From assembly GCF_003334385.1 (NCBI RefSeq), contig NZ_QOWN01000082.1: a stretch of 5,257 nt of DNA. One strand, given 5' to 3'. How positions within the stretch are numbered: the stretch's first letter is position 1; the number at the start of each line of letters is the position of its first letter. The translations under genes were made by a program, and so were the position numbers. Below, one piece after another: positions 3,835 through 4,707 of this stretch. Source of the DNA: Escherichia coli. GTDB taxonomy: Bacteria > Pseudomonadota > Gammaproteobacteria > Enterobacterales > Enterobacteriaceae. Below the pieces are notes generated by a model that had not been told where the DNA came from, made no database searches, and saw only the letters and a program-made list of their open reading frames with translations.

Positions 3835-4111
3835 ATTGCTGGATAAGATCATAACGATACACCGGGTTAAACAGGTGGTCACTGCTTCACTGAAGCTGCG
3901 TGATTATGATGGTCAGGTAGCAGAAGCTATGCCCATGATACAAAAATGACGAAAGCCGAAATGTCTGAAAGCGTGTGTATTACCTGAAAATATGACCGGC
4001 TCCGGGGTACGTAACCGATTCAACAAAGCCAATCGATATTACAAAACGAGAGGAACTATATATTTCGTTTTCAGATAAGACTCCTTGAGAGATTATCTTT
4101 TATGTAAAATC

Positions 4112-4405
4112 TCAAATATCACCTGATGTAATGTCAATGATAATATTAAGTGCGCTCTGAACAACATCTTTCTTGGTGTGATTAACATCTGACAAAAAGA
4201 ACATCAGCTTCTTTATTATGTTCTTGTTGTTTATTATTTCACGCTCACAGAATAAAGCGTTGACTGCCTCTTCTATGACATTTCTCTCGTAAAAAAATTG
4301 AGAGTTAGCTTCATATAAAATATTGGCCAATTTTTCACCAAAAACCATATTATAATAATCACTGTGCATCTTTCTCCCCCAGGGTTCAGTCAATAATTTT
4401 ACCAT
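4112..4405 (-). CDS. Hypothetical small protein (97 aa from ATG at 4405; 85 aa if started at the internal ATG at 4369, which has the better ribosome-binding site), AT-rich, no recognisable family
   Basis: A 97-codon ORF inside strongly AT-rich DNA, where stop codons are frequent by chance, so an ORF this long is less likely to be random. A GGGGGAGA Shine-Dalgarno-like motif lies 4-5 nt upstream of the internal ATG at 4369. There is an in-frame stop 9 nt upstream of the 4405 ATG, and all frames stop immediately downstream, so it is a stand-alone ORF. I do not recognise any homolog. Confidence 0.4.
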   Translation of the reverse strand: MVKLLTEPWGRKMHSDYYNMVFGEKLANILYEANSQFFYERNVIEEAVNALFCEREIINNKNIIKKLMFFLSDVNHTKKDVVQSALNIIIDITSGDI

Positions 4406-4707
4406 GCCTAATTATGACAGGTGTAACAAGCATATTTTGCTATATAAATAAAATACATAATACTGATTATTGTAAGAACAGGAAGCAGACTAATGGTTTT
4501 TTTTGTGAGCACATTCCTTCTTATGTAGGAAGAGGCTGTATTATATTCAGTCAACTCTTTTTTACTAAAAACATTATCTATGCCATCAAAGTTGCCTGCT
4601 AGCTAATTTTTAGGATATCGCCTTGTCGTGGATTATGCACTCTAAACATGTAGAAGGTATTCATTACAAATACACAGACGGCCATCTTTTGTAAAATGGA
4701 TGCCGTT

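Follow-up and report, generated by a model that had tools for sequence, protein, structure and literature searches.

The closest described relative of the gene reported here is AriR/YmgB of Escherichia coli K-12 (b1166; PDB 2OXL; Pfam family PF10798), a protein of 88 amino acids (aa) that is encoded in the ycgZ-ymgA-ariR-ymgC operon beside bluF and bluR. YmgB contacts RcsC's histidine-kinase (HK) domain, with activation of RcsCDB and a lowering of curli and biofilm through RprA (PMC6900184), and this induction of Rcs is RcsF-independent and does not need the periplasmic domain of RcsC (PMC11709261). The protein also binds SpoT at its TGS and Helical domains, with a rise in ppGpp; in the R74G mutant, SpoT binding and ppGpp accumulation are lost and Rcs activation stays intact (PMC10704370). 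We analyzed a 5,257-nt stretch of E. coli DNA (contig NZ_QOWN01000082.1 of assembly GCF_003334385.1; hereafter, the window), in which a preliminary description, made from the letters alone, had singled out a small open reading frame (ORF) at 4112-4405 on the minus strand as an orphan of unknown family between two remnants of insertion sequences (IS). The main outcome is a correction of that description: the ORF is almost certainly a member of the YmgB/AriR (PF10798) family, and the gene carries that family's name in RefSeq. The reading that we favour, with moderate confidence, is that it is a genuine 85-aa AriR/YmgB paralog of the accessory genome, carried on a mobile module of ~574 bp and stranded between IS fragments. 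It is an ordinary, uncharacterised paralog of a known family of small regulators, publicly labelled as such, and not a new kind of protein.

An AriR/YmgB-family protein of 85 aa

For the family assignment, profile, pairwise and structural comparisons were used. Hmmscan matched the protein to positions 2-59 of the 59 in the Pfam YmgB model, with an independent E-value (i-E) of 7e-6 and 26.3 bits; searching the PDB by sequence returned 2OXL, E. coli YmgB, at E 0.0016; and BLASTP against K-12 AriR/YmgB gave 30% identity over 83 residues (E 3e-8). When the subfamily was aligned with 12 other members by hhalign, residues 1-85 paired with 3-88 at 99.0% probability (E 5.7e-18). An exhaustive search of 1.8 billion representative proteins with the subfamily profile recovered two distinct full-length relatives, P0062 (E 7.8e-12) and P0066 (E 7.5e-6), both of which contain PF10798; the first is plasmid-borne and the second lies in the canonical bluF-bluR-ycgX locus beside icd. 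A word-indexed homology search with the single protein returned only near-identical copies from E. coli, Salmonella and Shigella together with broken variants, and a scan against NCBIfam found no model, just two non-significant and irrelevant matches. The public record WP_000555341.1, which has exactly this sequence, occurs on at least 1000 contigs and is named "biofilm development regulator YmgB/AriR family protein" by NCBI and UniRef.

The predicted structure points the same way. An AlphaFold2 (AF2) model, with a predicted local distance difference test (pLDDT) value of 79.5, has four helices at residues 3-19, 26-41, 48-60 and 67-82, and the top match in a Foldseek search of the PDB was 2oxl_A (probability 1.00; template modelling (TM) score 0.83, target-normalised; root-mean-square deviation 1.7 A over 57 columns), the next matches having E > 2. 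This fold match is consistent with the assignment but not independent of it, because the multiple sequence alignment behind the model contained AriR homologs. Both the profile search and the structure prediction had been proposed in the preliminary description, and both led to PF10798 and 2OXL, which settles its question of whether the protein is of a new kind. Its claim that no motif could be recognised is thereby superseded, its guess of a helical protein agrees with the four-helix model, and of the roles that it had listed, "small regulator" fits the family.

Compared with K-12 AriR, the protein is collinear over its full length and shares the NNKNII motif, a C-terminal T(S/A)xD(I/M) and a predicted fold that superposes on 2OXL; both genes are AT-rich (31% GC here, 35% for K-12 ariR). 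Identity is only 28-30%, however, and the genomic setting differs, in that the window gene stands alone between IS fragments, on a mobile module, and is present besides ariR. Across 36 sequences including the query, eight columns are invariant (L14, E28, A35, N48, K49, D68, L74 and T81). Among the family residues that we compared (L16, E30, A37, N50, K51, D71, R74, L77, E78 and T84, in AriR numbering), none of the 12 other members varies at R74 or E78, whereas the window protein has Q71 and N75 at these positions (R74 -> Q, E78 -> N) and a diverged allele of the gene, described below, has Gln and Asp.

The closest distinct relative, P0062 (86 aa, 45% aa identity), is likewise a stand-alone gene on a mobile element. 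It differs from the window protein in keeping R74 and E78, and its neighbours are different as well: genes for a polysaccharide deacetylase, a DUF535 protein, a PmrD-like protein and a glycosyltransferase, a neighbourhood that we take to resemble the shf/virK region of virulence plasmids.

With respect to the gene model, the ORF can be read as 97 aa from ATG 4405 or as 85 aa from the internal ATG at 4369, which is preceded by GGGGGAGAAAG at 4380-4370. The diverged allele carries a 1-nt deletion between the two start codons and retains the Shine-Dalgarno sequence. Because this deletion throws ATG 4405 out of frame and leaves the 85-aa ORF whole, we take the 85-aa form to be the conserved product and dropped the 97-aa reading; positions 4370-4405 are probably a 5' leader rather than coding sequence. 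The NCBI Prokaryotic Genome Annotation Pipeline (PGAP) gives the 85-aa form in most records and the 97-aa form in some. Translation from ATG 4369 with GGGGGAGA as its Shine-Dalgarno sequence, already put forward in the preliminary description, is therefore plausible, favoured by both the indel and PGAP. The same description had taken the ORF for a complete stand-alone gene and not a fragment, which is borne out by end-to-end alignment with relatives of 84-88 aa.

It had also argued that a long ORF is unexpected in AT-rich DNA. When 3950-4680 was shuffled 5000 times with dinucleotides preserved, 2.0% of the shuffles contained an ORF of 97 codons or more and 4.8% one of 85 or more, so that the length is indeed uncommon but, taken alone, is weak evidence for a gene; gene status is proven by homology and not by ORF length. 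This marginally unusual length would leave room for a chance ORF in an AT-rich spacer, but the profile homology, which extends over the full length and links the protein to a structurally solved family, refutes that reading. The related idea of an antitoxin or immunity protein without its partner could draw on the proximity of TacAT and ParE toxin-antitoxin systems on plasmids; these nearby systems, however, are complete pairs on the opposite strand, no partner gene recurs across the three contexts examined, and no significant match came from NCBIfam (PADLOC and PHROGs lay outside this search). We regard a chance ORF or orphaned antitoxin as extremely improbable, and the immunity, antitoxin and type III accessory roles suggested earlier are unsupported. 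Two further ORFs in the segment, of 48 aa at 4408-4554 (minus strand) and of 62 aa at 4414-4602 (plus strand), are both interrupted in the diverged allele, by a 28-nt deletion, and are therefore taken as chance ORFs. The former, which is hydrophobic and has a TTG start, was considered as an upstream partner and rejected, as the 28-nt deletion and a further 2-nt deletion destroy it in that allele.

Spread of the module and state of the gene

The extent of the module was delimited by comparison with the diverged allele (P0032, P0033; 87% aa identity), which is found on IncFII-type plasmids adjoining a Tn3 fragment and a TacAT module. In a blastn comparison of the window with loci L002-L006, homology, at 87.5%, is confined to 4047-4620, with identities of 91.8% in the upstream part, 94.1% in the coding sequence (CDS) and 89.2% downstream. 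A search with 3950-4680, of the kind proposed in the preliminary description, showed the segment to be recurrent: the 731 bp are present in 1771 of the 5426 complete E. coli genomes, at 1745 chromosomal and 87 plasmid places, with at least 99% identity in 1758 of the 1787 matching records, and the full 5.3-kb arrangement is present in 1409 genomes. The segment also occurs on 94 plasmids in PLSDB, including eight from Salmonella and one from Shigella, with IS30, IS1 and IS26 around it. On the chromosome, in the example examined, the gene adjoins the fec island for iron-citrate uptake; F-type plasmids carry it as well, and its plasmid neighbours are Tn3, IS1, IS30 or TacAT. Across the contexts examined, chromosomal and plasmid, none of the adjacent genes is conserved. 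K-12 MG1655 is without the module and has IS1F beside fecI, followed directly by yjhU.

The canonical ariR gene is present in 4937 of the 5426 genomes. At least 1282 genomes must therefore have both genes, and we conclude that the window gene is an additional paralog and not a replacement of ariR. The segment with this second AriR-like gene is present in roughly a third of complete E. coli genomes, and many F-type plasmids have it too. Biofilm, capsule, acid resistance and ppGpp are all influenced by AriR, and strains could therefore differ in these traits partly through an extra copy.

Is the gene still live? We think it likely that it is functional. In comparisons between paralogs, the proportion of nonsynonymous differences (pN) is 0.35-0.48 and that of synonymous differences (pS) 0.80-0.86; synonymous sites are thus saturated while pN is lower, from which we infer long-term purifying selection on the lineage. 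Several observations weigh against the gene as a genuine, working paralog. The Pfam score is modest, and precomputed Pfam tables give no domain for this protein cluster. The changes at R74 and E78, which are invariant in other members, may reflect a change of function or decay. Against the sole diverged allele, the ratio of nonsynonymous to synonymous substitution rates (dN/dS) is 0.75 on 15 substitutions, which is indistinguishable from neutrality. Frameshifted and IS1-truncated variants circulate (P0039, P0040, P0053, P0045, P0054), and neither a sigma-70 promoter nor a terminator turned up for the gene in consensus scans of its strand, counts being no higher than in shuffled sequences. Furthermore, AriR is reported to act together with YcgZ and YmgA (PMC6900184), whereas the window copy is encoded alone.

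Taken as decay, most of these points would suit a non-functional relic, that is, a former AriR paralog that is silent and decaying, hitch-hikes in IS-riddled DNA and is intact only through recent spread. The loss of two family-invariant residues, the dN/dS value, the broken variants and the negative promoter scan can all be read in this way, as can the pseudogenes that surround the gene and an EvgA-like box upstream (see below) that is degraded relative to that of P0062; moreover, nearly all copies are at least 99% identical, which leaves little time for decay. On the other side, the intact 85-aa sequence is found on at least 1000 contigs, and the ORF is whole in two alleles that are 15 substitutions apart, with no indels in the CDS compared to four events in the 251-nt upstream region. 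The amino-acid differences between the two alleles are mostly conservative, and the Shine-Dalgarno sequence is retained. On this evidence a relic is rather unlikely.

Upstream block and proposed regulatory role

Upstream of the gene, a non-coding block is common to the window and P0062 (blastn, 78% identity over 46 nt, E 7e-6) and is collinear between them. Since it has been retained while synonymous sites between the two genes are saturated (pS 0.86), we consider the block to be under constraint. It includes an inverted repeat that resembles the binding site of EvgA, of which the consensus is reportedly TTCYTACA-NN-TGTARGAA (Masuda & Church 2003; Itou et al. 2009). The window repeat (Table 1) agrees with it at 14/16 positions and its P0062 counterpart, TTCCTACA-CA-TGCAGGAA, which lies at an equal distance from the ATG, at 15/16. 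In 27 kb of K-12 sequence around evgAS and ydeP, the pattern at 14/16 or better occurred only upstream of frc, yfdX, emrK/evgA, safA and ydeP; emrK and safA are EvgA targets. For yfdX, yfdWUVE and ydeP, control by EvgA is documented (PMC3720670), and the EvgA site is present at all known direct targets of EvgA (PMC4283999). The other sites of at least 14/16 in the 192 kb of loci scanned lie solely upstream of two mobile YmgB subfamilies, with shuffle probabilities of 6.5e-4 for the window site and below 5e-5 for that of P0062. No EvgA-like site is present at the canonical operon or at the chromosomal-locus paralogs P0066 and P0125.

Two points tell against EvgA control. The consensus was not found in our literature search and was checked on K-12 promoter sequences only. 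In addition, a position weight matrix (PWM) built from five K-12 sites scores the window site at 9.3 bits, inside the background of 9-11 bits. The low score is due to the right half-site, which differs at two positions where the K-12 sites vary little or not at all; the same matrix gives 17.8 bits for the P0062 site and 21.8-25.6 bits for those of K-12. The sequence 'AGTC' follows 23-24 nt past the box in the window, safA, ydeP and emrK. A consensus scan found no minus-strand promoter of at least 9/12 upstream of the ORF, and any promoter would therefore be activator-dependent or weak.

Considering that the constrained block carries an EvgA-box-like repeat that is strong in P0062 and degenerate here, the subfamily may be, or may have been, under EvgS/EvgA. 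Judged from the sites, EvgA control of P0062 is evenly poised and that of the window copy doubtful. Our literature search returned no paper linking EvgA to a YmgB paralog. A block with an EvgA-like site that is common to two mobile subfamilies provides a testable hypothesis on how these genes are switched on.

Other candidate elements were noted. A second EvgA-like palindrome, TTGTTACA-CC-TGTCATAA, at 4412-4429 (13/16; 43-60 nt upstream of ATG 4369) is the window's top PWM match, at 11.6 bits, but is probably not functional, because it lies inside the 28-nt deletion of the diverged allele and is absent from P0062. An RcsAB-box reading of the upstream repeat was dropped by eye, half-site order and spacing being unsuitable. 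On one plasmid (pCP131-IncFIB, L017, 9163-13617), a single IS1A separates the YmgB-like module from a captured evgS/evgA segment, which includes the emrK-evgA intergenic EvgA box (14/16, 13600-13617); the adjacency may be a coincidental IS1-mediated capture, though it is remarkable in view of the EvgA-like box that precedes the YmgB-like gene.

As for what the protein does, we propose that it would serve as a small cytoplasmic connector on the Rcs phosphorelay, possibly via RcsC. Binding of the RcsC HK domain with induction of mucoidy and of RcsB-dependent genes is on record for K-12 YmgB alone (PMC6900184, PMC11709261, PMC10704370). The expected consequences of such action would be more colanic acid, less curli and biofilm, and an effect on acid resistance. 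From the likeness to AriR, action on Rcs is a possibility that we put a little below even. The residue aligned with Arg74, on which SpoT binding depends in YmgB, is Gln in both alleles. The stringent-response (SpoT) arm is thus probably gone from the window copy, which may keep only the Rcs arm. Such a natural variant without the SpoT-binding arginine offers a ready tool for separating the family's Rcs and SpoT activities. The literature search found nothing on this protein's accession numbers or on AriR/YmgB paralogs.

A different role would be that of an Hha-like nucleoid-associated modulator, which binds H-NS or DNA and tunes the silencing of acquired AT-rich DNA instead of acting on a phosphorelay. 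Plasmid-borne Hha/YdgT proteins act by binding H-NS or DNA, and the window gene likewise encodes a small helical protein on plasmids and islands in AT-rich DNA; moreover, Lee et al. 2007, who first described the structure of YmgB, reportedly noted a resemblance to Hha. The fold search, however, gave 2oxl alone above noise, with Hha and Cnu absent among its 50 matches, and later work places YmgB on RcsC and SpoT. We therefore hold the Hha-like role to be very unlikely and keep to the proposed connector on Rcs.

The two proposals can be joined by analogy with SafA (B1500), the small EvgA-induced connector that links EvgS/EvgA with PhoQ. SafA is located in the membrane and acts on PhoQ, and it too is a small regulator encoded by a stand-alone gene whose EvgA box lies ~110-160 nt upstream of the ATG; the two proteins are unrelated, however, and EvgA control of the window gene is putative. 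In the joint model, the acid-sensing EvgS/EvgA system would drive the subfamily as EvgA drives SafA, and the window type and the virulence-plasmid type P0062 would be a hitherto unnoticed class of EvgA-controlled, mobile "portable connectors" from EvgS/EvgA to the Rcs phosphorelay of envelope and capsule, with this copy, specialised by having lost the SpoT-binding arginine, triggering Rcs without the stringent response. We consider the combination quite unlikely. If true, it would mean that mobile DNA has rewired the regulation of acid response, biofilm and capsule in a strain-specific and widespread manner, the carrier segment being present in about a third of sequenced E. coli, and that these connectors wire EvgS/EvgA to Rcs much as SafA wires EvgAS to PhoPQ.

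Feature coordinates, flanks and related loci

The features of the gene and its surroundings are collected in Table 1. For the flanks, we used the features annotated by RefSeq in NZ_CP024131.1, a chromosomal copy with 100% identity (window position = locus position - 4051).

Table 1. Positions of the gene, its upstream elements and the flanking debris in the window
Feature	Position	Strand	Remarks
CDS, 85-aa YmgB/AriR-family protein	4112..4369	-	stop codon 4112-4114; identical to WP_000555341.1
12-codon N-terminal extension (97-aa reading)	4370..4405	-	contains Shine-Dalgarno GGGGGAG (4380-4374), 4 nt before ATG 4369
Conserved AT-rich gene module, ~574 bp	4047..4620	-	~251 nt upstream, CDS and ~65 nt downstream
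Conserved non-coding block	4494..4538	-	common with P0062 upstream region, collinear; 125-169 nt upstream of ATG
EvgA-box-like inverted repeat TTCCTACA-TA-AGAAGGAA	4514..4531	-	left half-site perfect, right half-site with 2 mismatches
Candidate -10 hexamer TACAAT (inferred)	4469..4474	-	39 nt downstream of box; box centre would be near -60
Left IS debris	3661-3987	+	IS3-family fragment 3661-3792; IS5/IS1182-family fragment 3857-3987
Right debris	4708-5257	-	starts with IS3-family fragment 4708-4806
Frameshifted hypothetical pseudogenes, right flank	4806-5010 and 5048-5119	-	
IS1F end	from 5130	-	

The base composition bears out the AT-rich segment between IS remnants of the preliminary description: GC content is 33.9% in 3950-4680, 31.9% in the conserved core 4047-4620 and 31.4% in the CDS, against 54.8% in 1-3800, with IS3/IS5 debris on one side and IS3/IS1 debris on the other. 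In the identical annotated copy, the fecIRABCDE operon lies just past the right end of the window, and further left of the module are IS66 and a phytase-like esterase gene. The pseudogene stretch 4807-5047 is ~89% identical to sequence adjoining IS3 copies in K-12-derived strains (C600, NEB10-beta) and probably represents debris associated with IS3, not left-over island cargo. An Rfam scan of 3400-5257 gave only a sub-threshold match to ctRNA_pND324 (25 bits, the gathering score being 45; E 0.75), at 4144-4241 on the plus strand, antisense to the CDS, which we take as chance.

At the left end of the window, an IS66-family element (1-1820) has an apparent in-frame deletion of ~153 bp in tnpC. 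Its TnpC has 461 aa compared to 512-523 aa in other copies, ISEc8 matches it in two pieces in which 1972 nt of the record are spanned by 1819 nt of the query, and its transposase is probably defective. Between IS66 and the IS3 debris, an intact gene of 452-457 aa (2021-3394, minus strand), annotated as "esterase-like activity of phytase family protein" and starting with an N-terminal signal-like sequence, travels with the YmgB-like module in the 1409 genomes that have the full arrangement.

Genes of the PmrD family, another small two-component connector, are found at or near YmgB paralogs in three contexts, namely on virulence-type plasmids, at the bluR-ycgX locus in some E. coli and at the P0125 locus (L008 10163-10510; L010 6868-7215; L012 3323-3646; L021 5510-5833); at the matching site of its chromosome K-12 has iraM. 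The arrangement suggests that connector genes are paired repeatedly. Some E. coli also have, besides ariR, a third YmgB-family gene of the P0125 type (86 aa) just past ycgX (L020/L021, 673-1519 and 5001-5261). Finally, a 78-aa gene at the position equivalent to ycgZ (L020 1283-1519) matches PF10798 as well, and the operon therefore holds distant paralogs of one fold.

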